DNA of 64,000 nt from a virus. Its lineage: Duplodnaviria > Heunggongvirae > Uroviricota > Caudoviricetes > Thumleimavirales > Hafunaviridae. The stretch is taken from positions 1 to 64,000 of the IMG/VR virus record IMGVR_UViG_638276137_000001. One strand, 5' to 3'. Shown here piece after piece: positions 2,876-55,324 of the stretch (within the stretch, counting starts at the first letter, position 1; each line of letters opens with the position of its first letter). The notes below the pieces were generated by a model that saw nothing but the letters and a program-made list of their open reading frames with translations, had not been told where the DNA came from and did no database searches. A program made the translations under genes and the position numbers.

Positions 2876-2978
2876 CGACGCAAAGACTCATCTGAGCAAC
2901 TTTAACCCTTAGCGGCGGCTCCGGGGTTCGACTCCCCGGAAGGGCCTCAGTAGCGTAAGCTACTGGCAAGTGACACCG

Positions 2979-3663: not shown

Positions 3664-3986
3664 ACAGTAAAGACTTAATACCGTAACGTTGTCTCTTAGA
3701 GTGAGGAAGATTCTCGGAGGGGACAACCGACTCGATGTGAGTAACCACTAAACTCAAATGTGCCACTTCAACGACGACTGTGAAGCCGGAGAGGAATCGT
3801 ATTGGGAGGATGAACCGACCCACGTAGGAGGAGCTTCGTTCGGAGCCTTCGGATGCGAAGCTTGCGGATACTCAGACTGCCTATGAAGAAGCCACACTCC
3901 TTCAAACCAGACTGTAACTGCTTCTATTGTGACCTCGAACGAGCCGAGAGAGCCGACCGACGCAAAGGATACCTGAGGTTCTGATA

Positions 3987-4346
3987 ATGGACTACCACGA
4001 CATACCGAGCTACGAGACGTACAAGAGCTGGAAGAACGCTTACGACGAATGGGAGGTTAAACTCATCGACGGGTATGGTGAGACGGTTCTCCACCTAAGC
4101 GAAGAACCCGACGCCCCGGAAGACCGAATCGAGGATGGACTGTTCTACCTGTGGGACACCGGAGACTGCCTCTCGTGGATTCGAGAGAGGGAAGCCTTCA
4201 CGATGGAATACGACACCGGGACAGTAACCGACGCCGACTACGTGGAGCTTCGAGAGGATGGAACACGGAACGAGACTCAACACAACCACGTCCATCTCGA
4301 TGCCGACGTAAGGAACGGAAGGAAGGTGGCGCTATCCCCGGTCTAA
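3987..4346 (+). CDS. Hypothetical acidic protein
   Basis: Clean ATG ORF of 119 aa with acidic composition. The stop lies within the taaagactt motif. Confidence 0.5.
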   Translation: MDYHDIPSYETYKSWKNAYDEWEVKLIDGYGETVLHLSEEPDAPEDRIEDGLFYLWDTGDCLSWIREREAFTMEYDTGTVTDADYVELREDGTRNETQHNHVHLDADVRNGRKVALSPV

Positions 4347-4445
4347 AGACTTAGAACGACACAATCAACTCTTTGCTCCGAGTGGCGGCCTACGGTTCGA
4401 CTCCGTAGCGGAGCTTCTGGTAGCACGAGCTACCGGGTGACACCG

Positions 4446-6004: not shown

Positions 6005-6673
6005 ATGACGTGGAGAGACTACCCCGAGGACTGGATGGGAAACCCGGACGGCAGAGACTACCACTACCGATTCCACGCTAACAACGAGGATGCTTGGAAG
6101 CGGCTTCGGAAGGCTCGCTGGATGAATCGGTGGTTCGAGATGTATCCGAAGGATATGAAGCACCTTCGAGTGAAGCTCCCCCACGTCACCGTCAAGACCT
6201 ACGACCACAAGGGTCACATCGAGGGGATGGCGAAGTATGCCTGCTCTCCTGATTGGAAGGTCGTTCCCTACTCCCGAGGGAAGTGGGAGATGAAGCACGC
6301 CTCTCGTGGCGGCTCAAAGCTCCGGTGTGAGGAATACACCGGGGAGAAGTGGGGGAAGCTGACTGTCGAGTTCACCGTCGAACACACTCCGAAGGAGATT
6401 CGGGAAGCCTACGAGAAGGGCGTCAACGAGGCCGAAATCGAGACTTCCATCCGAAATGGCCTTCATTGGGCCGTCGAGGAACGCATCGACGAACTCCGAG
6501 AGGAGAAATGGGAGTACCAGAACGAGGTCTGTGACCACAAACACGTAGTTACTGACCGTGGAACCTACGGAGCCGAGGCGTTCTGTGAGGACTGTAATAA
6601 GCTCTGGATGGACTCGATGGAGCTTGACTCTGCTATCGAGAGTGACGAGATTACGGTAGTCGGTTCGGTCTAA
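6005..6673 (+). CDS. Hypothetical protein with a C-terminal Cys/His cluster (CDHKH...CEDC)
   Basis: 222-aa ORF whose ATG overlaps the upstream stop. Trp-rich N-terminal region. Confidence 0.55.
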   Translation: MTWRDYPEDWMGNPDGRDYHYRFHANNEDAWKRLRKARWMNRWFEMYPKDMKHLRVKLPHVTVKTYDHKGHIEGMAKYACSPDWKVVPYSRGKWEMKHASRGGSKLRCEEYTGEKWGKLTVEFTVEHTPKEIREAYEKGVNEAEIETSIRNGLHWAVEERIDELREEKWEYQNEVCDHKHVVTDRGTYGAEAFCEDCNKLWMDSMELDSAIESDEITVVGSV

Positions 6674-6691
6674 AGACTCGGAGATACAATA

Positions 6692-7057
6692 ATGAGTGTT
6701 AACACCAGCGACGACGGAGAGGAGCTAATCGGAATCGAACGACGGGAAGCCCTCGTTGAAACGTGGGATGTGGATACCGAGGTCTTCGAGACGCCCCACG
6801 CTTCTGACGACAACCCCTTCCGGTCGATGCCTTCGGGGATTCACTTCGAGGGATACAACCACGACGACTACTGCCCGGAGTGTGGTCGGGGAGGTCGTGA
6901 CAAAGGAGTGCTGAGCGATTACACCGGAGGACTCGCTGGTAGCTATATGACAGTCCTTCTCTGCGAAGGCTGTCTCTCGGTGTGGCTCAAGTCCTTCGGC
7001 TGGTCGGCTGACAGAGACTACCCGAAAAACCACATCTTCCACCCTGACAACCGATGA
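6692..7057 (+). CDS. Zinc-ribbon protein (CPECGRGG...CEGC)
   Basis: 121-aa ORF with a CxxC...CxxC pattern. Confidence 0.5.
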   Translation: MSVNTSDDGEELIGIERREALVETWDVDTEVFETPHASDDNPFRSMPSGIHFEGYNHDDYCPECGRGGRDKGVLSDYTGGLAGSYMTVLLCEGCLSVWLKSFGWSADRDYPKNHIFHPDNR

Positions 7058-7323: not shown

Positions 7324-7604
7324 CCACGAGAACCGTAGCTGGCTGGCCGGTCGCGGCTACCAAGCAAAGTGGCGGTGTAAAGACTGCGGGAGCCGGGTTC
7401 GAGGTGGTTATGACCACGATGAAGGGCGATTCATCGAGTTCAGAGGTGGGACGTGGCCTTAGAATGTGAGAAATGCGGCGGCCCTCGGTTGAATGGAACG
7501 CCGGTCACTCAGGATAAGGAGGGCGGCGGTTGGCGGATTGCCTTTCCGAGTGACTCGAACAAGCGATACTACTGCCGGAGCTGTGCGAAGGAGGTAACTC
7601 AGTA

Positions 7605-7781
7605 ATGGAACCCCACGACGACTACCCGAAGGAGTGTCCTGCCTGCGATTCAGCGGTCGAAGAACGGAGCTACGGCGTCCGGTGTAGCAACTTCCGTTGC
7701 CTCTGGAAGCGGTGGTGGCAGGATAAGCTCCCGATGTTCAGCGCAAAGACTCACGAACAGCACTACGCGGAGACTCACTAA
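7605..7781 (+). CDS. Small zinc-ribbon protein (CPAC...CSNFRC)
   Basis: 59-codon ATG ORF below the track's size cutoff. It has taATG overlaps at both ends. Confidence 0.35.
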   Translation: MEPHDDYPKECPACDSAVEERSYGVRCSNFRCLWKRWWQDKLPMFSAKTHEQHYAETH

Positions 7782-10116: not shown

Positions 10117-10370
10117 CTGCGGTGTCACCCCGGTAGTATGGAAGAAGACCTTGAGAAGATAGAGCAAGCCGACTACGACTACTTCTACTCCCTTCGGAGG
10201 AAGGCGTGTTGGCGTCGGCGTGGAAAGTCGAAGCCCCGCCGCGACGTGTCTGAGATAATTGACATAGAGCGGCGGGAGTGGCGAGAGTAAACGGCGAAAC
10301 GCCCCACCGTGGGGCGTCGTCGGGAGTTGGTCATCCCGGCTGTTGACGAGCCGACCAGACACCTCTAAAA

Positions 10371-12167: not shown

Positions 12168-12216
12168 CCGATAAAGACTTATAAATACTACTCTGAGTCT
12201 TAGAGGAACATAAGAA

Positions 12217-13209: not shown

Positions 13210-13629
13210 ATGAGTACGCTCGCTGACTTCGGAGCCGACGTTCCTGAAGAAGCGTGGAAAGACCGGGATACTCTCTACGAGCTGTATCACGAACAAGGTC
13301 TTGACCAGTCCGAGATGGGAGACGAACTCGGCTGTTCCGCCGGGACAATCTCCTACTGGATGGACAAGCTCGGCGTCGATACAACCCACACCTCCCACAA
13401 CACTCAGGCTGAACCTCAGCCGGAGGATTGGGATTGCGAATACCACGAAGTGTGTGGGAACGAGACTCCCGGCCCCCGAAACGGAGTGTGTGATAGGTGT
13501 CTCGACCTCGCTCGGCTCAATCAGTCGGGATACTACGACGGCGAAACGGCTGACCGGAGTAGCTTCGATGAAATGTCCGAGTTCATGGCGGCGCTGTACG
13601 ATATTCACGGCAAAGACTCAGAGAACTAA
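13210..13629 (+). CDS. Putative HTH DNA-binding protein with a C-terminal Cys cluster
   Basis: HTH-like segment QSEMGDELGCSAGTISYWMDKLG followed by CEYHEVCGNE...CDRC. Confidence 0.5.
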   Translation: MSTLADFGADVPEEAWKDRDTLYELYHEQGLDQSEMGDELGCSAGTISYWMDKLGVDTTHTSHNTQAEPQPEDWDCEYHEVCGNETPGPRNGVCDRCLDLARLNQSGYYDGETADRSSFDEMSEFMAALYDIHGKDSEN

Positions 13630-13631
13630 TA

Positions 13632-14063
13632 ATGAGTGTTACCACTACAAGCGACGAGGAAAAGTTCGAGGAATTGTTCGGGAGCGTCAACACCGACACT
13701 CTCGAAGGAGCAATCGAGAACGACGAAAACACGGTCTGTCTCGGAACCTACGGAGACGACCTGAGGAAGAAGAACAAGCGGATTACGTGGGACTACCAGC
13801 TCGCGTCGGAACACCCGGAGGAAATCAAGCGGGCCGGTGAGGGTAACTTCGTTGACCTCTATCCCGAGGAAGGAGATGAGGGCAAGAAGACTCGCGTTAG
13901 CTTCACCTACTTCGACCACGCTGAGGAGTTCTTCGACGCGAACCTTCGGGAGAATCCTGAGGCGCTGTTCATCCATCCCGAGTGGAACTTCATTCTGGTG
14001 GTGAAGCCCGAGGACTCTGAGAAGTACCTCGCAATCGCTCCCGTGGTTCACGGTGACGAGTGA
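13632..14063 (+). CDS. Hypothetical acidic protein
   Basis: 143-aa ATG ORF preceded by caaagactcagagaactaataATG. Confidence 0.5.
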   Translation: MSVTTTSDEEKFEELFGSVNTDTLEGAIENDENTVCLGTYGDDLRKKNKRITWDYQLASEHPEEIKRAGEGNFVDLYPEEGDEGKKTRVSFTYFDHAEEFFDANLRENPEALFIHPEWNFILVVKPEDSEKYLAIAPVVHGDE

Positions 14064-16985: not shown

Positions 16986-17170
16986 AGAATATCATCTCAA
17001 GTGAGATTCCCCCGAGACAGACTACTAACAGTATAACTACTACTGTATAACTACTAAGTGTATAACTAAGAGAGATTCACTACATCGAGTCTCTTTTACT
17101 TAACAGAGTATAGTAGAGTAGTTAGGGTAGTGTAGGTACTATACTGGGTAGTACCCCGTTCGGAAGAACT

Positions 17171-17228
17171 CCTCACTCTAATAGACGGGAACTAAGGACT
17201 TAAAGATACCGATTCTAAGTCTTTAGAT
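17171..17228 (-). promoter_or_regulatory. Composite conserved element (CCTCACTCTAATAGACGG plus AAGGACTTAAAGATACC...TAAGTCTTTAG palindrome), copy a
   Basis: One of six near-identical copies of this element. The palindrome contains the TATA-like CTTTAAG/CTTAAAG in both orientations. This copy points towards the minus-strand genes. Confidence 0.5.
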
Positions 17229-17277
17229 TCGTGAACAATGAATGACTTAACACACCCCCGGCCCGTAGTGGGCCGGT

Positions 17278-18311: not shown

Positions 18312-18364
18312 AGGAGTAAAGATGAAGTCACGCTATTAAGTCTTTGCTATGTTCTCTCATTCCG

Positions 18365-18419
18365 CCTAAGACTCAAATCGGTATCTTTAAGTCTTAGGCT
18401 CCCGTCTAATAGAGTGAGG
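18365..18419 (+). promoter_or_regulatory. Composite conserved element, copy b (plus orientation), upstream of tRNA-Arg and the SPFH gene
   Basis: aagactcaaatcggtatctttaagtcttaggctcccgtctaatagagtgagg. The TTTAAG lies about 25 nt upstream of the conserved GTCTAATAGAGTGAGGAGG leader. Confidence 0.5.
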
Positions 18420-18508
18420 AGGTCGCGGTGGCCTCCCGACTCGTTTGCTTGGCAGAATCCTGTCATAGTTTGTCATTGGTGTCCAGCCACCGCCTCGCGG
18501 TGGTTTTT

Positions 18509-20650: not shown

Positions 20651-20708
20651 CTTCTAAGAATCAAATAGGTATCTTTAAGTCTTAGTCCCACGTCTAATAG
20701 AGTGAGGA
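20651..20708 (+). promoter_or_regulatory. Composite conserved element, copy c, upstream of tRNA-Asn
   Basis: aagaatcaaataggtatctttaagtcttagtcccacgtctaatagagtgagg. Confidence 0.5.
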
Positions 20709-20735
20709 CAAGCGCCCAAATCCCCTCTTTCTCTT

Positions 20736-21941: not shown

Positions 21942-21991
21942 GCTCTCTACCTCGGTGTAAAGACTCGAAACCACGCTGTTAATTCATAAAA

Positions 21992-25092: not shown

Positions 25093-26270
25093 GTTACCAA
25101 CAGAACCTCACCCCGACAGAACTGGACATTATCGACTACTTCCCCGCGACCTACGCCGCCCTCTCTGACGAGTTTGGATTCTCTGAGTCCACGGCTCGTG
25201 ACCACATCAGCAGTATCGAGCGCAAGGGCGCTCCCCTTGCGAAAAGACGCATCGACGGGGGCAAGGTCGAAGCGTATATGCGGGACGTGGAGAAGGAACA
25301 CCCGACGAACCAGAATGAGACTCGGGAGTACGGTTCGACCACGAAAGCGACGAAGACGAAGCGGCTGAACAAGACCGCTGGTTCTCTCTCGCGGCGTCTC
25401 GATAAGGTGCTGAACAACACGGAACCCGCTATCAGCGCCGTCCCGCTCTCCGAGGGCGGCGAAGAAGACGTGGTGATTCACGTCACGGACGACCATATCG
25501 GAGACGTTCTCGAAAACGAGTTCGGGAACGAGGTCTTCAACACCGAAATCGCTCTTGAGCGGATTCGTTACCGGACGCAGAAGACCCTCGAACTAATCGA
25601 GCGACAGCGGAAGGCCGGGTGGGACTTCCACACGGTTCACTACGTCATGGGCGGTGACATTATCACCGGCTCCGGTATCTACCGAGGTCAGGCGTGGGAA
25701 GTTGAGCTGAACTTCAACGAGCAGGTAGACCTCGCGGCTCAGGTTCACTTCGAGCAGATTCGGACGCTCGCAGAGAACTTCGACGCCGTTCAAGTGGTGT
25801 GTCAGACCGGCAACCACGGAGAGATTCGGATTAACGGTTCGAGTCAGAAAGCGAACGGTGACGACATTGTGTACCGGATGCTCGATGCGGTTGTCCGGGC
25901 GTCTGAGTACGAGAACATCACCTTCATCCGTAACGACCGGACGGGCTTCACGAACTTCGAGATTCGTGGACACAAGGCCCACATCCGGCACGGTCAGAAC
26001 GCGGCAGAACACATCGGAACTTCTGCGGCCAAGCGGGACTGGAGAGGATGGCTTCTCCAGCACGACTTCGACATTGCCTACGCCGGGCACTACCACACGC
26101 AGGGAGTTGACCGGGTGATGAACGTTCCCGTGATTCGCTCGGGTTCCATCAAGCCGCCGGGTGACTTCGAGGAGTCTATCGCTGAGTGGTCGATGCCCGG
26201 AGCGACGATTCACGGAGTCTCTGACAGTCTCCCGCTGACGTGGCTCTACGACGTTCAGTATCAGCCGTAA
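25089..26270 (+). CDS. HTH domain fused to a calcineurin-like metallophosphoesterase (Mre11/SbcD-type motifs)
   Basis: N-terminal HTH-like ELDIIDYFPATYAALSDEFGFSESTARDHISSIE. Phosphoesterase motifs VIHVTDDHIGD (DxH...GD), GGDIITG, GNHGE and AGHYH. Confidence 0.6.
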   Translation: MSYQQNLTPTELDIIDYFPATYAALSDEFGFSESTARDHISSIERKGAPLAKRRIDGGKVEAYMRDVEKEHPTNQNETREYGSTTKATKTKRLNKTAGSLSRRLDKVLNNTEPAISAVPLSEGGEEDVVIHVTDDHIGDVLENEFGNEVFNTEIALERIRYRTQKTLELIERQRKAGWDFHTVHYVMGGDIITGSGIYRGQAWEVELNFNEQVDLAAQVHFEQIRTLAENFDAVQVVCQTGNHGEIRINGSSQKANGDDIVYRMLDAVVRASEYENITFIRNDRTGFTNFEIRGHKAHIRHGQNAAEHIGTSAAKRDWRGWLLQHDFDIAYAGHYHTQGVDRVMNVPVIRSGSIKPPGDFEESIAEWSMPGATIHGVSDSLPLTWLYDVQYQP

Positions 26271-26358
26271 AGACTCATCGAGATAGCTCCGACTCTTATC
26301 TTAAGAGTTATGTACCGCTCTCCGATTCTTTAGCAGTACGCAACCAGCAGGACACCAA

Positions 26359-26784
26359 ATGGAAAACAAAGACGAGTTCTTCGGCACGCCGAGAGCAGAC
26401 ACGACGACCATCGAAAGCGGAGAGGGAATCCACAACTACTGGGCGCTCCACAAGTTCGCGCTTGAAACCGAGTACGACTGGATGCCGACCCACCTCCGCC
26501 GCTACCACCCCGGACGGATGATTGACGGCGAGCTGATGGAGGGCTACTACGACGAGTTCATTCCCGTCGCTCACGACGCGCCGAGAGGTCGCGTTCTCAA
26601 GAAGAAGGTCAAGGAGGAAACCATCGTCTGCCCGGACTGCGAAGTAGCCGCTCGCAAGATAGACACCGGAGAGCCGGTCTGTCCCGAGTGCGGTCTTATC
26701 TGCGACGAGGGACGACCGACCTACGAGATAGTGAACGACCCGAAGGCGGCGGGTCGAGTTGACGCCAAGAAGGGAGGAGTATAA
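26359..26784 (+). CDS. Zinc-ribbon protein (CPDC...CPEC)
   Basis: 141-aa ATG ORF. Confidence 0.5.
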   Translation: MENKDEFFGTPRADTTTIESGEGIHNYWALHKFALETEYDWMPTHLRRYHPGRMIDGELMEGYYDEFIPVAHDAPRGRVLKKKVKEETIVCPDCEVAARKIDTGEPVCPECGLICDEGRPTYEIVNDPKAAGRVDAKKGGV

Positions 26785-27539: not shown

Positions 27540-27807
27540 CGGGAGACTGATGGAAGAAGCGCAGGAAATCATCGAGGGGCGTTCTGAAACTCATGGCGCT
27601 CCCGAAGATTCCTTCCAACGAATCGCTCACTACTGGAACGCCTATTTCCTGAACTCGGGTTTTTCAGACCCCAACATTCGGCCCGCTGACGTGGCTGAAA
27701 TGATGGCGCTGTTCAAACTGGCCCGAGCGCAGGGCGGTGACTACAACGAGGACGATTACCGTGACCGACTCGGCTACGTCAACCTCGCAAGCAACTTGCG
27801 ACGATGA
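27523..27807 (+). CDS. Hypothetical protein
   Basis: 94-aa ATG ORF. Confidence 0.4.
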   Translation: MDEVNSGRLMEEAQEIIEGRSETHGAPEDSFQRIAHYWNAYFLNSGFSDPNIRPADVAEMMALFKLARAQGGDYNEDDYRDRLGYVNLASNLRR

Positions 27808-31917: not shown

Positions 31918-34482
31918 ATGAAGGAAATCTACATTACCAACACCGAACTGGTCTACGAAGATTACACCCCGAAAGCCAAACTGTTCGGGCGAACCGAAGC
32001 CGGGAAGTCCGACTCCGTTACCGTGGAGAACTTCCCCGCCTACTTCTACGTCCCTGCCGAGGAACGTGGCCGGGTTGACCCGTTCGATAACGACTACCTC
32101 GAAGGGTACGAAGACACCGACAAGACCGGCCTCGTGAACGACGAGGAGCTGGTGAAGGTTATCGTCAACAACCCGAAGAAGATGGGAGAGGTCGCGTCGT
32201 TCTTCTCGAAGTCGTGGGAAGCCGACGTTGACTACACCGACCGGCTCCGTATCGACCTCGGTATCAAAACCGGCGTTCGAGTCCCATCGAGTCGGGTCAC
32301 TCCCGACGAGATTGAGCCGATTGAGATGGACGCGCCGCCCCGTGTTCTGACGTTCGACATTGAGACGGACGACCGGGGCGAAGGATTCCCCGAGTACGGA
32401 CAGGCCCGTATCCTCTCCATCGTCGCTCACGACAACTACACCGACGAGTACGTGGGCTTCATCGACCTCGACGGTCACGGCCTTGGGGAACGCTTCCCCG
32501 ACGCCGACCTCGATGCGGTGAGCCACCCGAGCGACCTCGGACTCGATAAGCTCAGCAAGCTCAACTTCGAGCCGGACGAGCGGAAGATGCTCACCGAGTT
32601 CGCCAAGTACGTGAACGAGAAGGACAGCGACCTCGTGGTTGGGTGGAACAGCAACGGGTTCGACACGCCGTTCGTTATTGAACGGATGAAAGAGCGCGGT
32701 GTCAACGCCGACCGCCTCTCTCGCACCGGCAACACCTACACCGGCTACGGCGGCCCGACGATTCAGGGGCGTACCTGCTACGACCTGATGGACGCTTGGA
32801 AGGACACCAAGTTCACGAAGGTCAGCGGGTCACTCGATAACGCCGCTCAGATGGAGCTGGAAGACGCGAAGATTGAACACACGGACAAGGGCTTCTACGA
32901 GCTATACTCGGAGAACACCCAAAAGTTCCTCAACTACAACACGAAGGACGTTTCCCTCACCGTGGGTGTCAACGACGCGGCGAACGTCCTCGCGTTCAAG
33001 AAGGCTCTCCGTGACACGATTGGTCTGGACTTCGAGCAGACCACGGCGAACAACGAGTTCATCGAGATGATGATTCGCCGGAAGCTCCACACCGAGGGCT
33101 ACGCCGGGCCGACCGCCAACCCGCCGGAGGAAACCGAGAAGTACGACGGGGCCTACGTGTTCCCGGCGTTCAACGGCCTCAAGGAGAACGTGGTCGGAAT
33201 CGACCTCGCTTCCCTGTATCCGAACACGCTCTGGATGCTGAACGCTTCGCCGGAGACGAAGGTTGACCCGCTCTACGTGGAGGAACACGACGACGGACTC
33301 TACGCTGTCCTCGAAGAAGGAGGCGACCTCGTTCCGGTTGCGAAAGCGGCCAACGACGTTTACTTCCGACTCGATTACGACGGCGTGTTCCGCGAGCTTG
33401 TGGACGAAGCACTCCGCCTCAAGGAACACGCTGGCGAGATGAAGAAGGACGACTCCCTGAGCGCCGAGGAGAAGTCCAAGTGGGCAGAGGAGTATAGTGT
33501 CAGGAAGACGATAGTTAACTCTATCTACGGCGTTCTTGGATGGGCGCGGTTCTTCCTCTACGACGACGATATTGCCGCCGCTGTCACCCTTACCGGGCAG
33601 GCAGTAATCAAGCGTACCGCGAAGTACGTGGACGAGGAAAGTATCGCTAATGTGGCATATGGCGACACCGACTCGAACTATATCGAGTTTGACAGCTCGA
33701 TGAACCAGCGGGAGTGCCTCGAAGCCGCCGACGCAATCACGGACAAGCTGAACAACGAGGTGTACGTTGACCTCGCCGCCGAGTACGGGATGCCGACCGA
33801 CCCGTGCCGGTTCGATATTGAAATCGAGATGTACGCCTCTCACTTCTTCATGTCCGGGCAAAAGAAGTTCTACGCCTATACGAAGGTGTGGGACGAGGGG
33901 ATGGACTACGACGCCACCCTGAAAGACGGGAAGGGGAAACTCAGTATCTCCGGCTACCCGTGTAAGAAGGCGAACACGGCTCAACTCACGAAGGAAGTCC
34001 AGCGGGAGACGCTGGAAACCATCGTCCGTGGTGGTGAAAGCGACGACATTCGCCGCATCATCCGAGAGGGAGCCGAACGCATCGACGCCTCTAACCCCGA
34101 CTTCGACCTCATCGGAATCCCCGGTGGGCTTGGAAAAGAGCTTGAAGACTACTCGTGGACTGACGGCACGCCGAAGGGCGCTTCGCCCCGAGCGGCCTAC
34201 TACGGTAACAAGTTCATCAACGACTGTAACTTCGGGAAGGGGAACACGGTCAAGCGGGTCTACCTCAAGCACACGACGCTCGGAGAAGACACGCTCGATG
34301 TGATTGGATACGAACGTGGAGCGCAACTGGACGACCTCAGCGACCAGCTCACCGTGGACGTGAAGCGGATGCAAGACACGCTCGTTCGCAACCCGATGGT
34401 AGACATCCTCGATGCGGTGGATATTGACGTTGACGCCGCGATTGAGGGACAGTCGCAGACCGGACTCGCCGCGTTCTGCTAA
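31918..34482 (+). CDS. polB: Family B DNA polymerase with a 3'-5' exonuclease domain
   Basis: Exo I FDIETD. Exo II VGWNSNGFDTPF. Exo III YNTKDVSLT. Pol motif A DLASLYPN. Motif C YGDTDS. Length 854 aa. Confidence 0.9.
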   Translation: MKEIYITNTELVYEDYTPKAKLFGRTEAGKSDSVTVENFPAYFYVPAEERGRVDPFDNDYLEGYEDTDKTGLVNDEELVKVIVNNPKKMGEVASFFSKSWEADVDYTDRLRIDLGIKTGVRVPSSRVTPDEIEPIEMDAPPRVLTFDIETDDRGEGFPEYGQARILSIVAHDNYTDEYVGFIDLDGHGLGERFPDADLDAVSHPSDLGLDKLSKLNFEPDERKMLTEFAKYVNEKDSDLVVGWNSNGFDTPFVIERMKERGVNADRLSRTGNTYTGYGGPTIQGRTCYDLMDAWKDTKFTKVSGSLDNAAQMELEDAKIEHTDKGFYELYSENTQKFLNYNTKDVSLTVGVNDAANVLAFKKALRDTIGLDFEQTTANNEFIEMMIRRKLHTEGYAGPTANPPEETEKYDGAYVFPAFNGLKENVVGIDLASLYPNTLWMLNASPETKVDPLYVEEHDDGLYAVLEEGGDLVPVAKAANDVYFRLDYDGVFRELVDEALRLKEHAGEMKKDDSLSAEEKSKWAEEYSVRKTIVNSIYGVLGWARFFLYDDDIAAAVTLTGQAVIKRTAKYVDEESIANVAYGDTDSNYIEFDSSMNQRECLEAADAITDKLNNEVYVDLAAEYGMPTDPCRFDIEIEMYASHFFMSGQKKFYAYTKVWDEGMDYDATLKDGKGKLSISGYPCKKANTAQLTKEVQRETLETIVRGGESDDIRRIIREGAERIDASNPDFDLIGIPGGLGKELEDYSWTDGTPKGASPRAAYYGNKFINDCNFGKGNTVKRVYLKHTTLGEDTLDVIGYERGAQLDDLSDQLTVDVKRMQDTLVRNPMVDILDAVDIDVDAAIEGQSQTGLAAFC

Positions 34483-34534
34483 AGACTTAAACCGGAGTCT
34501 TTAAGTCATTAGCTCCCGTCTATTAGAGTGAGGA
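34481..34534 (+). promoter_or_regulatory. Composite conserved element, copy d, between polB and the thyX operon
   Basis: ctaaagacttaaaccggagtctttaagtcattagctcccgtctattagagtgagg. Confidence 0.45.
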
Positions 34535-34736
34535 GCGACTTCTACGAGATTCTGAACCAGAGAGATACTTCTATGAGACACATCCAACCAGCTACTCAAG
34601 ACGACCTCGCATCACTACTTGCTGACGTTCTCAGCGACGTACTACGAGAGGATTGCCGCATCGACGGGTTTCAGGAAACCCACCACTACCGACCGGAAAT
34701 GACCGAAATCGAGTTCTCGGTTTCTTACTACCACGA

Positions 34737-37270: not shown

Positions 37271-37515
37271 TCACCAAAGAGTTAAATCAGCATCTTTAAG
37301 TCATATAGTACCGTCTGGTACTATACGACGAAACATCCGAATTAGCTCGCGCGAGCGCATAACGCGGGCGAAATATCTATCTTAGTTATATACTCTTAGT
37401 AGTTTACTACCGTTAGTTACCTACTTTGAGTTTTACCACATCGAGGTTGTTCACTCAACTAAGACAGTACCGTAGTAGAACACTCAGAGTTATACACTCT
37501 ACCTAAACAGAACTA

Positions 37516-45266: not shown

Positions 45267-47684
45267 CTACTTACACGGCGAGAACCAGCACTCGGGACAC
45301 ACCGCGCAATCGTCCGTCTTCTCAAGCTCACCGTCACCACACTCCGGGCAGGTGAGCGTATCCGAACCCACGTCGTCCTCGCTAACGATACCGAGCTGAA
45401 CCGCCGCCTTCTCGCTCACCTCGCCCTTGAGGTATAGTTCGAGAAGGTCGTCGTCGCGGTCGCCCTCGTCGTCCAGATTGTTGTCCACACGAGTCGTGAG
45501 AACCTGCTGGTCGCGGGAGCCGTCACGGTACACGGTCAGGCCCTTGATAACCGCGCCACGTCGGCCTTCATCGAGGGCAAGCTGGTAGGCATCCGCCACG
45601 TCGTCGTGTGTCGCCTCGTTCGGGAGGTTGACCGTCTTGCTGATGCCCGAGTCGCAGAACTCTTGGAACGCTCTCTGCATCAGCCCGTGCTGTTCAGAGG
45701 ACAAGTCCTGCGTCGTGACGAAGATTTCCGCAATCTCGTCGGGAATCGACAGGTCGTTGACTCCATCAAACTCGTTGTTCCGCATCAGCGTCTCCGCTTC
45801 CTCCTTCACGGCGTCCACATCGAGGTCGTTTTCCTCCAGCGTCCGAAGGAAGTAGTCGTCAAACTCCACGAGCAGGTCGTCGCCCTGAATGTCCTCGGAG
45901 ACGTTCTTGAAGTTCGCCACGTTGTAGGCAGGCTCACACCCGCCCGTCGTGTTTCCAATCATCGAGGTGGTTCCGGTCGGAGCGATAGTCGTGATGTTGT
46001 GGTTGCGGATGGGGAAGCCACCGGCCCAATCCTCGGGGTCAAGCCCCGTGCGAGCGGCGAACCACTCGTCGTACTCGGTCGGGTCAGCGTACTTCGACTT
46101 GTCCCAGTAGGAGAACGCCCCACGTTCGAGAGCGAGCCGGTGAGAGGCCCACGTCCCCCTCCGGTCGATGTATCGCATGACGCACCGCGCGACCTCGTAG
46201 GAGTCCTGCGTGCCGTAGGGGACGCCCATCTGGTAGAGCATCTGCGCGAAGCCCATGATTCCGAGTCCGATTTTCCGCATCCCACCGACGCGCTCGGTAA
46301 TCTCGGGGATGGGGAAGTCGGACTGCGTGACTACGTTATCGAGGAATCGAGTACCCGCCTCGATGGTTCTGTCCAGCTCGTTGAAGTCCACGGCAGTCTC
46401 GAAGTACCACTCCACGGCCTCCCGAGTCGAAAGGTCGCCGCTGGCTACGTCCTCCAGCTTGTCGCTCAGGAACTCGTCGTAGGTCGGAGCATCCTCGCTG
46501 AGCATCAGAGAGAGGTTGATGTGGCCGAGGTTACACGCCTCGTACTCCACGAGCATCTGCTCGGCGCAGGGGTTAGTCGCGTTCATGCGGAACTCGGGAT
46601 ACTCCTCAACGTCGAACGAGTGCTGGCGGTTCGACTCCTCGAAGTTGAACAGGCCCGGCTCACCGTTCCGCCACGCCCCGTCAATCATCACGTCCCAAAT
46701 GAACGCGGCGGGAAGCTCCATCGGCTCACCAACTTCAAGCCGAAGACCCTCGTGACCCTCCCACTTCTCGCGGAGCGTGACTCGCTCGCCGTACAGCTCA
46801 CACTCAATTTCGTCGGCGTAGTCCCGCCACAGGTTCTCCTCCACGACCGCGCCCTCGCCGTCGTCAAAGGCGTCACGCGGGTTGTCCTGATACTCCGGGG
46901 AGTAGAAGTGGGCCGACAGCTCTCGCACCGTGTACGGCTCCTCGTAGTCAGTCTCCGGGTCGTACAGGGTATAGGACTCCTGAGCGTCAACTGCCTCGAT
47001 GAAGTTGTCCGTCGTAGCGACCGAGATGTTGAAGTTCGCAAACTCGCCCTCGTTTCGCTTCGCCACGATGAACCGACCAATATCCGGGTGGTCGGCGCGG
47101 AGAATACCCATCTGAGCGCCACGACGCTTGCCGCCCTGCTTCACCTGATTACACGTCTCGTCAAAGACCCGCATGAAGCTCACCGGGCCGGACGCCTCGC
47201 CACCAGTCGAATTAATGAAGGCTCCCTTCGGTCGGAGGTGGGAGAAGGCGTACCCGACGCCACCCCCGCTCTGGAAGATGAGAGCGGCCTGCTGAGCCGT
47301 CTCGAAAATGTCTTCCATGTCGTCGCGGGGTTCGATTACGAAACACGCAGAGAGCTGATTCATGTCCGTCCCGGCGTTCATCAGCGTCGGGCTGTTCGGC
47401 ATGAACCGGAGCGTCTTCATCTGGTGTTCAAACTCATCGGCCCACGTATCGAAGTCCCCGTCTTCCTCGGCTCCGGCGACGTTCTCAGCGACTCGTCGGA
47501 ACAGGTCGTCAGCCCCCTCGATGATGTTACCCTCCGAGTCTTTTCGGAAGTAGCGGGCCGGGAGGATTCCATGAAGGGCGTTATCAGTAAGGCGGTCTTC
47601 TACGGTGAGCGATTCGTCAACGGTCTTGATGGGGGTTTCAACGGTCTGTTCTTCTGTTTCAGTTTCAGTTGTGACTACGGACAT
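45267..47684 (-). CDS. Ribonucleotide reductase large subunit, probably class II (B12-dependent)
   Basis: Active-site motif NATNPCAEQ (NPC[GA]E type). C-terminal zinc ribbon CPECGDGELEKTDDCAVCPEC. 805 aa with the RNR core fold. Confidence 0.8.
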   Translation of the reverse strand: MSVVTTETETEEQTVETPIKTVDESLTVEDRLTDNALHGILPARYFRKDSEGNIIEGADDLFRRVAENVAGAEEDGDFDTWADEFEHQMKTLRFMPNSPTLMNAGTDMNQLSACFVIEPRDDMEDIFETAQQAALIFQSGGGVGYAFSHLRPKGAFINSTGGEASGPVSFMRVFDETCNQVKQGGKRRGAQMGILRADHPDIGRFIVAKRNEGEFANFNISVATTDNFIEAVDAQESYTLYDPETDYEEPYTVRELSAHFYSPEYQDNPRDAFDDGEGAVVEENLWRDYADEIECELYGERVTLREKWEGHEGLRLEVGEPMELPAAFIWDVMIDGAWRNGEPGLFNFEESNRQHSFDVEEYPEFRMNATNPCAEQMLVEYEACNLGHINLSLMLSEDAPTYDEFLSDKLEDVASGDLSTREAVEWYFETAVDFNELDRTIEAGTRFLDNVVTQSDFPIPEITERVGGMRKIGLGIMGFAQMLYQMGVPYGTQDSYEVARCVMRYIDRRGTWASHRLALERGAFSYWDKSKYADPTEYDEWFAARTGLDPEDWAGGFPIRNHNITTIAPTGTTSMIGNTTGGCEPAYNVANFKNVSEDIQGDDLLVEFDDYFLRTLEENDLDVDAVKEEAETLMRNNEFDGVNDLSIPDEIAEIFVTTQDLSSEQHGLMQRAFQEFCDSGISKTVNLPNEATHDDVADAYQLALDEGRRGAVIKGLTVYRDGSRDQQVLTTRVDNNLDDEGDRDDDLLELYLKGEVSEKAAVQLGIVSEDDVGSDTLTCPECGDGELEKTDDCAVCPECWFSPCK

Positions 47685-47867
47685 TGTGTGTATAGTATAG
47701 TAATATAGTAGGTGAACTACTCAGAGTGATTCACTACATCGAGGTGTTTGTTCTTTCTCAGTCTCTACTAAGTGAATCACTTAGATGGAAAAAGTCCCCA
47801 TACTACCACAGTAGGTAGTATGGGGTGGATTTCGAGTGAACCTGTTAGGTTCGCTTCGTCGCAAGCT

Positions 47868-47932
47868 CCTCACTCTAATAGACGGTAACTAAAGACTTAA
47901 AGATACCGACTTTGTTCTTAGAGTGTCAGTCG
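47868..47932 (-). promoter_or_regulatory. Composite conserved element, copy f (minus orientation), upstream of the RNR gene
   Basis: cctcactctaatagacggtaactaaagacttaaagataccgactttgttcttagag. Confidence 0.5.
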
Positions 47933-48111
47933 TCTGTTGGGAGGAATCGGTCGAGTATCTGCTGAACGCGACCTCGTTTGAGTGCCAATGCCATGAAGAA
48001 TCCGAGTGCCCACGCCACGAGGGGTGGGGTGTTTGCGATTTCAGGTATCATATCAGTTTCAAGTTAAAGACTCAAATAGGTATCTTTAAGTCCTTGGCTC
48101 ACGTCTGTTAG
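47923..48111 (+). CDS. Small Cys-rich ORF between two divergent conserved elements (uncertain)
   Basis: ORF track only. A GTG start lies about 25 nt downstream of the palindromic CTTAAAG. A 41-aa TM-peptide ORF on the opposite strand (47925..48050) is an alternative. Confidence 0.25.
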   Translation: MSVVCWEESVEYLLNATSFECQCHEESECPRHEGWGVCDFRYHISFKLKTQIGIFKSLAHVC

Positions 48112-48118
48112 AGTGAAG
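48064..48118 (+). promoter_or_regulatory. Composite conserved element, copy g (plus orientation), upstream of the 48119 gene
   Basis: aaagactcaaataggtatctttaagtccttggctcacgtctgttagagtgaag, then ATG at 48119. Confidence 0.5.
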
Positions 48119-49003
48119 ATGGATTTTTCGAGTGTAACCAACGCCGTTAGTGACCTCTCTAACAAGGTTCGACTTGACGGCACGCCAGCAGAAGAAGAAC
48201 CGGAAGAAGACCAGCTCATCGAGTTCGTTACCGAGGAAGAATTGTACGGGGCGATTCCTGAGCCGCTTCCCGCGAACAAGGTACTGCCGGATTGGTACAA
48301 GAAGCTCGGCCAATACACCGAAGGAAATGGAGAGCTTGGCTCCACCAACGAGCGGAATGGAGTTGCCCGTTCAACCGTGAAGCGGTGCGCTCCGTTCATG
48401 GAGGCAATGACGATGGGATTCATCGTCCCTCTGTGTGGTGAAGTTTACTTCGATGCGGAAGATGGGTACGTACAGTACGAATGGGATTTCCAGAGAGAGC
48501 TTATTTCACCGCACAGCTTGTCTCAGGTCGGGGGAGAGATGTTCCCCAATCACGAGTGGCCTGTTCTGAAGTTCATCAACCATTGGTCGATAAAGGTTCC
48601 AGACGGCTACTCGGTACTCGTCACTAACCCGATGAACCGCCCCGGCCAGCCGTTCACTCCGTTCTCTGGAATCGTTGACGTTGACAGCTACTTCAACAAC
48701 ATCAACGCTCCGTTCATGTGGACTGGTGGTGACTTTGAAGGAGTCGTACCACAGGGAAGTCCCATCATTCAGGTGATTCCGTTCCACCGAGATACGATGC
48801 TGACTGACGCGACCTCCCGGCCCATGACCGAAGAAGAAGACATGGAGATTCGTAGAACGAAGAACGAGATTAGCGCCCACCAGTCGATGTACCGCGACAA
48901 TCGGTGGCAACACAAGCAGGGGTCGCGGATGCTACCTCCAGAAGCGGTAGAGTCGGGTGAAGATGAATCTGAAGGTTCTTCCTGCCCGTTCCACCGGAAT
49001 TAG
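48119..49003 (+). CDS. Hypothetical protein
   Basis: ORF 48113..49003 (GTG) with ATG at 48119. 294 aa and converges on the late operon. Confidence 0.5.
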   Translation: MDFSSVTNAVSDLSNKVRLDGTPAEEEPEEDQLIEFVTEEELYGAIPEPLPANKVLPDWYKKLGQYTEGNGELGSTNERNGVARSTVKRCAPFMEAMTMGFIVPLCGEVYFDAEDGYVQYEWDFQRELISPHSLSQVGGEMFPNHEWPVLKFINHWSIKVPDGYSVLVTNPMNRPGQPFTPFSGIVDVDSYFNNINAPFMWTGGDFEGVVPQGSPIIQVIPFHRDTMLTDATSRPMTEEEDMEIRRTKNEISAHQSMYRDNRWQHKQGSRMLPPEAVESGEDESEGSSCPFHRN

Positions 49004-54891: not shown

Positions 54892-54955
54892 AGAAATGGG
54901 GGAGAAGGGCTTTCTCTACTACTATTAATGGTAAAGGGTTTATATATGATGTAAG
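54892..54955 (-). promoter_or_regulatory. AT-rich internal promoter candidate within the late operon
   Basis: Short AT-rich gap with TTTATATA. On the minus strand ATATATAAA lies about 35 nt upstream of the 54891 start. Confidence 0.3.
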
Positions 54956-55324
54956 CTATTCCGTGTGCGTTACCGATTCGTTTTCGCCACTATTCACCAC
55001 GCTCGCCGTCCCCGCTCCGGGGTCACTCGTAGAGTCACCGACCCGAACGACAGGACTACCATTCACCGTGATAGACGGATTCTCGTCGGGAACGAGGTCG
55101 TGGGACGAATAGCTCGTACAAGCCGGTGGGTCGCCACTATATGCGTGAGCATGAGAGGGAAAGTGCATCGAGTCGTTGTGGTCGGTGATAGGAACGTCGT
55201 TGATAGTCACCGATTTATCCCCGTCAGCGTCCTTCGTCTGTCCCGTCACCGTAGATTGACACTCCGAAGGGTGGCCGTCAGCTTCACACAACGTCCCGTG
55301 AACTGAGATTTTTTTAGTAGACAT
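54956..55324 (-). CDS. PAAR-like spike-tip protein (His/Cys metal site)
   Basis: 122 aa with VHGTLCEADGHPSEC and HFPSHAHAY...C, plus VVRVGDSTSDPGAG-type repeats. Confidence 0.4.
   Translation of the reverse strand: MSTKKISVHGTLCEADGHPSECQSTVTGQTKDADGDKSVTINDVPITDHNDSMHFPSHAHAYSGDPPACTSYSSHDLVPDENPSITVNGSPVVRVGDSTSDPGAGTASVVNSGENESVTHTE

Follow-up and report, generated by a model that had tools for sequence, protein, structure and literature searches.

The virus DNA analysed here (hereafter the window; 64,000 nucleotides, positions 1 to 64,000 of an IMG/VR record) carries at 17171 one of several copies of an element of about 55 nt with a palindromic TATA-like core, which raises two questions: what reads this element, and what might bind its palindrome. 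Over a 6-kb query the window is 100% identical to the HF2 record (AF222060.2 / NC_003345.2), with identical numbering; HF1 is an equally good match over that query, and at 47600-48400 the identities are 94.6% for HF1 and 100% for HF2, which makes the window the first 64 kb of Halorubrum virus HF2. The six copies and one partial copy in the window are the published class I repeats IR1c, IR2, IR3, IR4, IR4.5, IR5c and IR6, whose sequence, promoter function, starts and conservation have already been published and annotated in GenBank. The class I repeats of haloviruses HF1/HF2 go back to the description of the HF2 genome (reference 3 of PMC8707807), and their functional study (Russ, Pfeiffer, Dyall-Smith 2021, Viruses 13:2388; PMC8707807) defined a unit of 56-58 bp with the motifs alpha, beta and gamma and added the partial copy as IR4.5. 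The copies, with the transcription starts that we derive below, are the following.

17169..17227, minus strand: IR1c, 59 nt (GenBank 17176-17226), comprising alpha, a BRE/TATA/beta part and a gamma/start region; inferred start 17174; HrrHF2_215 and the ERCC4 nuclease gene lie downstream.
18364..18421, plus strand: IR2 (GenBank 18366-18421); inferred start 18416; tRNA-Arg (18509) and the prohibitin/SPFH gene lie downstream.
20652..20709, plus strand: IR3 (GenBank 20655-20704); inferred start 20704, 32 nt 5' of tRNA-Asn, which is followed by tRNA-Tyr.
34479..34535, plus strand: IR4 (GenBank 34479-34535); inferred start 34530, upstream of HrrHF2_390, thyX and the dCTP deaminase gene.
37273..37330, plus strand: IR4.5, partial copy (cloned-fragment coordinates in the supplement of PMC8707807); inferred start 37327, upstream of RtcB.
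47866..47923, minus strand: IR5c (GenBank 47866-47921); inferred start 47871, upstream of the ribonucleotide reductase (RNR) gene (ATG 47684).
48064..48120, plus strand: IR6 (GenBank 48064-48120); inferred start 48115, 4 nt 5' of the HrrHF2_475 ATG (48119).

The repeat_region features of AF222060.2 coincide with our pattern matches for the six full copies, and pattern searches, alignment and a weight matrix all recover the element of about 55 nt, with its six copies and a partial one at 37283, that the initial annotation had described. The 18-mer CCTCACTCTAATAGACGG has seven matches at up to three mismatches in the window, against 0.05 expected, located at 17171(+), 18402(-), 20690(-), 34516(-), 47868(+) and 48101(-), with a weaker match at 3689(-). 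Similarly, AAGACTTAAAG has eight matches at up to one mismatch, against 0.81 expected in the window, the partial copy (37294) among them. When all six full copies are turned the same way, their pairwise identities over 58-59 nt are 69-86% and 33 of 59 columns are invariant; the alignment is free of gaps except for one extra base in IR1c. All six contain alpha, the beta motif TCTTTAAGTC and the gamma motif CGTCTNNTAGAGTGAGG, and IR4.5 contains alpha and beta only. This partial copy (about 37273-37330) is 57-66% identical to the full copies, keeps the first two-thirds of the element without the 18-mer, and has a 9-bp inverted repeat, TATAGTACC-N4-GGTACTATA, in place of gamma. A weight matrix built on the six cores scored the full copies at 61-68 bits and IR4.5 at 18 bits, the best score in 20 shuffles being 14.5. 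The repeats are confined to the first 49 kb of the window, and all seven lie in non-genic gaps, each pointing in its native orientation at a gene or tRNA; IR4 overlaps the PolB stop codon, at which it starts. The gene contexts listed initially (tRNAs, SPFH, thyX operon, RNR, RtcB and the ERCC4 operon) are right, and to these we add HrrHF2_475, the target of IR6 that had been left unnamed.

The activity of these elements has been established experimentally. With a bgaH reporter assayed in both orientations in Haloferax volcanii, every class I repeat was a strong promoter in its native orientation (PMC8707807), and primer extension mapped the start of every copy but IR4.5, which starts two bases further 3', to the same G in gamma (PMC8707807). 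The TATA box is given as "beginning at -26" and the BRE as lying at -33 to -37 (PMC8707807). Scanning mutagenesis of IR4 revealed that mutation of the TATA box or of the start/gamma region abolished activity, and that alpha, the BRE and the non-TATA part of beta are dispensable, their mutation not reducing activity (PMC8707807). Class I repeats drive early and middle genes (PMC8707807), and IR3 is the origin of the 18-kb transcript F52 (PMC8707807). The repeats are fully active in uninfected Haloferax volcanii (PMC8707807), so a viral factor is not needed for their activity. The promoter with a TTTAA(G) core that the initial annotation had read from the sequence is hence borne out, the reporter and mutagenesis data (PMC8707807) identifying this core as the TATA box; so is its placement of the transcript start inside the 18-mer, the primer-extension starts mapping at the distance from the core that it had specified (PMC8707807).

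The text of the published study thus sets the TATA box at -26 and the BRE at -33 to -37, and has IR4.5 start at a G that lies two bases 3' of the common position. From this the start is most readily inferred to be the G of the GTG in AGAGTGAGG, which places GAGT upstream of the transcript. On this reading of the text, the starts would fall at 17174, 18416, 20704, 34530, 37327, 47871 and 48115, with transcripts beginning GAGGAG (GAAG in IR6) and leaders, from IR1c to IR6, of 189, 93, 32, 43, 189, 187 and 4 nt. These distances do not favour the Shine-Dalgarno-like role that had been suggested for the 18-mer. In five of the six full copies GAGGAG lies 189, 93, 32, 43 or 187 nt from the next gene or tRNA, the leaders of IR2 and IR3 lead to tRNAs, the leader of IR6 is 4 nt long and carries GAAG, and IR4.5 is without the motif. 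Since the motif is in no copy a few bases 5' of a start codon, and since two copies lead to tRNAs, such a role is not supported; the title of one study in the reference list of PMC8707807 states that Hfx. volcanii does not use a Shine-Dalgarno mechanism at 5'-UTRs. We also considered, and rejected, a leaderless GTG start in GAGTGAGG: a long frame opens there in only two copies, and the annotated starts lie downstream.

The repeats resemble canonical haloarchaeal promoters, as mapped in Haloferax volcanii and cited in PMC8707807: both have a TATA box at about -30 to -26 with the BRE just upstream and a purine start, both use the host RNA polymerase, and both are active in a heterologous haloarchaeon. 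The repeats differ from them in that about 58 bp, rather than about 15, are conserved, and in that the conserved flanks are dispensable for basal activity. The class II intergenic repeats of HF2 (29 bp, late-gene promoters) are likewise repeated, conserved promoters for which class-specific factors have been proposed, but they are unrelated in sequence, lie in the right arm (e.g. 54918-54965) and have no AAGACT/AGTCTT dyad. Unlike class I, they show substantial activity both ways, with about half in reverse (PMC8707807).

The class I element itself was initially suggested to be a probably bidirectional promoter. If it were, its near-palindromic TATA region would fire both ways and serve, on the alpha side, HrrHF2_220, HrrHF2_470 and the antisense transcript R52. 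Weak reverse activity of IR1c and IR3, and the position of IR3 at the origin of R52, are compatible with such a promoter (PMC8707807), as is the geometry of the small genes HrrHF2_220 (IR1c) and HrrHF2_470 (IR6), which are at the alpha side at distances that would fit a start about 27 nt from the reversed TATA box. In the published assays, however, IR1c and IR3 had low reverse activity, and no other class I repeat showed more than a negligible level (PMC8707807). Among the latter is IR4, although its alpha side can be read as a perfect reversed TTTAAGTCTTTAG; its reverse direction points into the PolB 3' end. HrrHF2_225, beside IR2, has a AAAGACTTAATAG motif of its own. We therefore regard true bidirectionality as improbable. 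The AAAGACTTAATAG motif lies at 18333-18344(-), 33 nt 5' of the HrrHF2_225 ATG, and combines an alpha-type half with a TATA-like run as at 3670 (see below); its sequence suggests a separate promoter for a leaderless or near-leaderless HrrHF2_225 transcript, and not reverse firing of IR2.

Around this promoter core lie conserved bases that basal activity does not require. In native orientation, alpha (..AAGACTYAAA..) and beta (..TTTAAGTCTT..) form imperfect inverted copies flanking the BRE; the text of PMC8707807 makes no mention of a palindrome, dyad or operator in alpha/beta. The palindrome pointed out in the initial annotation is real, but it is imperfect, lies between the alpha and beta motifs and has in IR1c a spacer of 17 bp, not 16; the dyad is imperfect in IR3, IR5c and IR4.5. 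At up to two mismatches, AAGACT-N16-AGTCTT has 20 matches in the window, against 2.5 expected and a maximum of 7 in 100 shuffles, and 14 of these 20 lie outside the repeats. N16 is the only enriched spacing: starting from the 47 exact instances of AAGACT, a right half with at most one mismatch occurs nine times at N16 and zero or one time at the other spacings between 6 and 26. When only non-repeat matches with up to two mismatches are counted, N16 yields 14 (9 non-genic) and other spacings 0-7 (0-2 non-genic). Nine of the 14 non-repeat dyads thus fall within the non-genic 5.5% of the window (binomial p about 7e-9), at 2883, 3670, 4346, 6673, 12174, 21960, 26270, 26303 and 62407. Those that we followed site by site are listed here; the dyads are given without strand.

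2883..2910: non-repeat dyad with two mismatches in the gap 5' of HrrHF2_010; both halves are kept in relatives.
3667..3706, plus strand: compact class-I-like element in the gap 5' of HrrHF2_020, absent from the published class I repeats and mapped starts.
4346..4373: non-repeat dyad, AAGACT-N16-ACTCTT; it covers -38 to -11 relative to the published start T-4384 and so overlaps the promoter there.
6673..6700: non-repeat dyad with one mismatch, AAGACT-N16-AGTGTT, at the HrrHF2_075/080 junction; the least secure of the non-genic matches.
12174..12201: perfect non-repeat dyad, AAGACT-N16-AGTCTT, between the helicase gene and HrrHF2_145.
21960..21987: non-repeat dyad in the gap 5' of HrrHF2_275, weak in HF2 and with a better right half (ACTCTTAG) in relatives.
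26270-26297 and 26303-26330: two adjacent non-repeat dyads in the gap 5' of HrrHF2_295.

The element at 3667-3706 consists of AAAGACTTAATA, an alpha-type half-site followed by a TATA-like run, then N12 and GTCTCTTAGAGTGAGG, a gamma motif that includes the exact 10-mer TAGAGTGAGG. Besides this site, the 10-mer occurs only in five repeats, and the element is kept in Serpecor1, HRTV-15 and HJTV-2. At 12174-12201 a TATA-like TTATAAATA adjoins the left half, and in three relatives the half-sites are invariant and the spacer is variable. For the site at 4346-4373, only a 14-nt alpha-like match has been remarked upon (PMC8707807). At 6673-6700 the ATG of the next gene (6692) lies inside the 28 bp, which makes the right half coding, and the N16 sites at 6673 and 13613 are gene junctions, so that coding constraint confounds their conservation. 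The junctions at 6673-6700 and 13613-13640 have in common a 28-nt string, AAGACTC.GAGA....AATAATGAGTGTT, which is identical at 23 of 28 positions, is conserved in relatives and holds one gene's stop codon, a run of GGAGA/AGAGA and the beginning of the following gene, ATG-AGT-GTT. This string may represent a half-operator, a coupling signal or paralogy.

The N16 peak is present also in Serpecor1 (12 sites), HRTV-15 (10) and HJTV-2 (12), these counts not being independent, as the four genomes compared are related. When four non-repeat sites are aligned over four genomes, 5 of 64 half-site columns are variable, as against 31 of 64 spacer columns (Fisher p 3.5e-7), a comparison with some bias, since the sites were picked by their match in HF2. 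It was confined to non-repeat sites because the repeat spacers hold the BRE and TATA box and are uninformative in this respect. The shorter spacing AAGACT-N8-AGTCTT occurs two to three times each in Serpecor1, HRTV-15 and HJTV-2, against once in HF2. Taken together, the fixed spacing of the dyad, the conservation of its half-sites and its presence at non-repeat promoters support a two-fold site at the level of DNA.

An inverted repeat could alternatively act as a nucleic-acid hairpin, for instance as a processing or termination signal in long polycistronic read-through transcripts. Primary transcripts of 18-35 kb are seemingly cut to species of 0.5-9 kb on Northern blots, with several repeats near transcript ends (PMC8707807); IR4 begins at the PolB stop codon, and IR2 and IR4 fold somewhat better than shuffles (z -2.3 and -2.6). 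The remaining four of the six full copies, however, fold no better than shuffles (z 0 to -1.0), and an A/T-rich stem of 6-8 bp with a 16-nt loop is weak. Among 70 dyad instances in the four genomes, none of 85 deviations is compensated (70 break a pair, and 15 leave a G-T wobble on one strand), and spacer drift preserves no extra pairing. A search against Rfam returned no RNA family at or between the repeats. On the folding z-scores and the absence of compensation we ruled out the hairpin or terminator as a candidate, and we assign it a very low probability.

More weight attaches to the possibility that the repeats are simply strong promoters, in which alpha, the 3' part of beta and gamma tune the element to a host TBP/TFB pair or were copied along by cassette duplication, with no dedicated regulator. 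Haloarchaea carry multiple TBP and TFB paralogues and HJTV-2 encodes a TATA-box-binding protein, both of which would suit a promoter of this kind. So would the activity of the repeats in uninfected Hfx. volcanii without viral proteins and the requirement of gamma for basal activity (PMC8707807). The halves at non-repeat promoters, moreover, are roughly at the places of BRE/TATA and -10/-11 elements. The left one borders on a TATA-like run and the right one is near -11, so the N16 spacing could partly reflect basal promoter geometry and not a dimer. Against this, alpha and the non-TATA part of beta are conserved across viruses even though their mutation leaves basal activity unlowered, and the register of the dyad is not fixed. 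In the repeats it spans about -48 to -21, whereas at T-4384 it covers -38 to -11, a difference of one helical turn. The half that the TATA box adjoins also changes, being the right one in the repeats but the left one in the non-repeat promoters, although the direction of transcription is the same. Both differences are hard to fit to fixed basal elements and argue that the halves are a separate two-fold protein site. Inheritance by duplication, likewise, leaves unexplained why half-sites are kept while spacers drift at non-repeat sites. We consider a plain promoter unlikely, if clearly less so than a hairpin or a bidirectional element.

The reading that we favour, with high confidence, is that the repeats are strong host-polymerase promoters bracketed by a putative two-fold site for shut-off by a presumed symmetric protein. 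As the published experiments show, the host RNA polymerase reads the repeats towards early and middle genes, through a BRE at about -37 to -33, TTTAA at -30 to -26 and a start at the G of the GTG in AGAGTGAGG. In the proposed scheme, alpha and the 3' part of beta would be the halves of AAGACT-N16-AGTCTT, bracketing the BRE and TATA box from about -48 to -21. A symmetric, probably virus-encoded DNA-binding protein would occupy the dyad in competition with TBP/TFB, and the promoters would be shut off together, in a temporal programme or in a provirus state. With the same dyad apparently marking other left-arm promoters, the regulon would be wider than the seven repeats. An operator for a dimeric regulator, as advanced in the initial annotation, is plausible from the arrangement of the sequence. 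The dyad focuses the question of which factor recognises the dispensable but conserved flanks on a 28-bp site that can be tested, and it enlarges the putative regulon. Transcription control in tailed archaeal viruses is poorly understood, and for specialists the dyad is of modest, incremental use.

The identity of the protein and the sign of its control (repression or activation) are points on which we infer rather than observe. Repression is the likelier sign, since the dyad brackets or overlaps the TATA box of promoters that need no viral factor to be strong, and temporal shut-off or provirus silencing is a possible role, since HF2 has an integrase and an attP site. The authors of the functional study proposed that virus-encoded factors bind the repeats and named HrrHF2_165 (13210-13629) as a candidate (PMC8707807), which is also one of the two proteins put forward in the initial annotation. 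In our searches the one match of HrrHF2_165, of MarR type, did not pass the threshold (E 7e-4), and this protein had no sequence relative in the PDB; HrrHF2_435 gave no Pfam or PDB sequence match. Next to a TATA-box-binding protein annotated in the haloferacalesvirus HJTV-2 (gp41; MZ334513.1, 5048-5662(+)) we observed a small winged-HTH gene. HF2 is without such a gene, and gp41 is relevant to a possible re-programming of promoters by these viruses.

More tentatively, and on balance somewhat short of an even chance, a 28-bp operator may be common to at least 15 haloferacalesvirus left-arm promoters (the seven repeats and about eight non-repeat ones), and in N17 form to mincapviruses, through which one viral master regulator would silence the early/middle arm. 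Such a regulator would act as a temporal shut-off factor or as a provirus repressor, occluding the BRE and TATA box. If true, this would be the first repressor regulon of genome-wide extent in any tailed archaeal virus, with a concrete target for EMSA. The repressor of mycobacteriophage L5, gp71, has many 'stoperator' sites, which are asymmetric 13-mers in fixed orientation. HF2 may be likened to L5 in that a short motif recurs at many short intergenic gaps of the early region in a phage with an integrase and attP. The resemblance would be one of functional analogy only: the HF2 site is a symmetric 6+16+6 dyad over promoter cores, its repressor is hypothetical and, in contrast to the L5 repressor system, HF2 is lytic on its laboratory host.

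Class I repeats are conserved in position and orientation across haloferacalesviruses (PMC8707807). In agreement, a weight-matrix scan located seven copies in Serpecor1 and six in HRTV-15, genomes that are 80-84% identical to HF2 in the repeat region; gap and orientation are those of HF2. The copies therefore form one conserved set, syntenic at homologous positions, and the absence from such positions that would have spoken against the initial annotation is not seen. The occupation of the same gaps in genomes at 80-84% identity also ruled out a mobile, MITE-like repeat, which we had considered as a candidate.

Diverged copies extend to the neighbouring genus Mincapvirus. In HRTV-7 (Mincapvirus, KC292021.1) we identified three colinear class-I-like repeats, at 7602-7645(-), 26319-26362(-) and 27633-27676(+), which sit at positions equivalent to IR6, IR2 and IR1c and follow the consensus CAAAGAATTGA-N5-CGACAGAGTTAAGTC-N9-GCGTTTAGTTTAGTGAGG. 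All six deposited mincapviruses (HRTV-2, HRTV-7, HRTV-11, HSTV-2, HCTV-6 and HCTV-15) have the three places each, with a half-site spacing of 17 bp. HRTV-7 was explicitly excluded from the repeat comparison of 2020 and served in 2021 as a tree outgroup only (PMC8707807). The Mincapvirus copies, the element at 3667-3706 and the N16 dyad shared with non-repeat promoters are what the present analysis adds to these 2020 and 2021 papers on the HF2 repeats.

In IMG/VR, matches were found only on contigs of 68.5-76.8 kb, the haloferacalesvirus/mincapvirus range, and on a few shorter metagenome fragments. To cellular genomes we applied the pattern TTTAAGT-N11-CGTCTNNTAGAG, which has 17 fixed bases, over 185,579 species genomes and 1.2e12 positions. 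The scan returned 16 single matches in unrelated bacteria, against about 70 expected by chance, none of which resembles the full element; on the repeat matrix they reached 12 bits at most, whereas the majority of true copies score 47-68 bits. The exact pattern recovered no haloarchaeal provirus among these 185,579 species genomes, and published proviruses such as Hdep-prov1 may either be missing among the species representatives or deviate at one of the fixed bases.

Several further elements were noted in the window. The leaders of IR1c and IR5c have in common a 25-nt block, CTCGATGTAGTGAATC.CTCT.AGT, at 17065-17089(-) and 47719-47743(-), where none is expected by chance, and the copy in the IR1c leader stops one base short of the published start T-17064. 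A second, proximal promoter may, by analogy, lie about 35 nt 5' of the RNR start codon. Comparison of the three leaders of about 188 nt revealed no global similarity of the 5' UTRs. Just 5' of the Rad3-like helicase gene, at 10292-10359(+), we detected a type II hammerhead ribozyme, which is already annotated in the HF2 record; its match to Rfam RF02276 scores 41.1 bits and exceeds the gathering score. At 17264-17276(+), directly 5' of the ATG (17278) of HrrHF2_220, a homing-endonuclease-like gene, lies a G+C-rich inverted repeat, CCGGCCC-GTAGT-GGGCCGG, that could mask the start codon or end a transcript.
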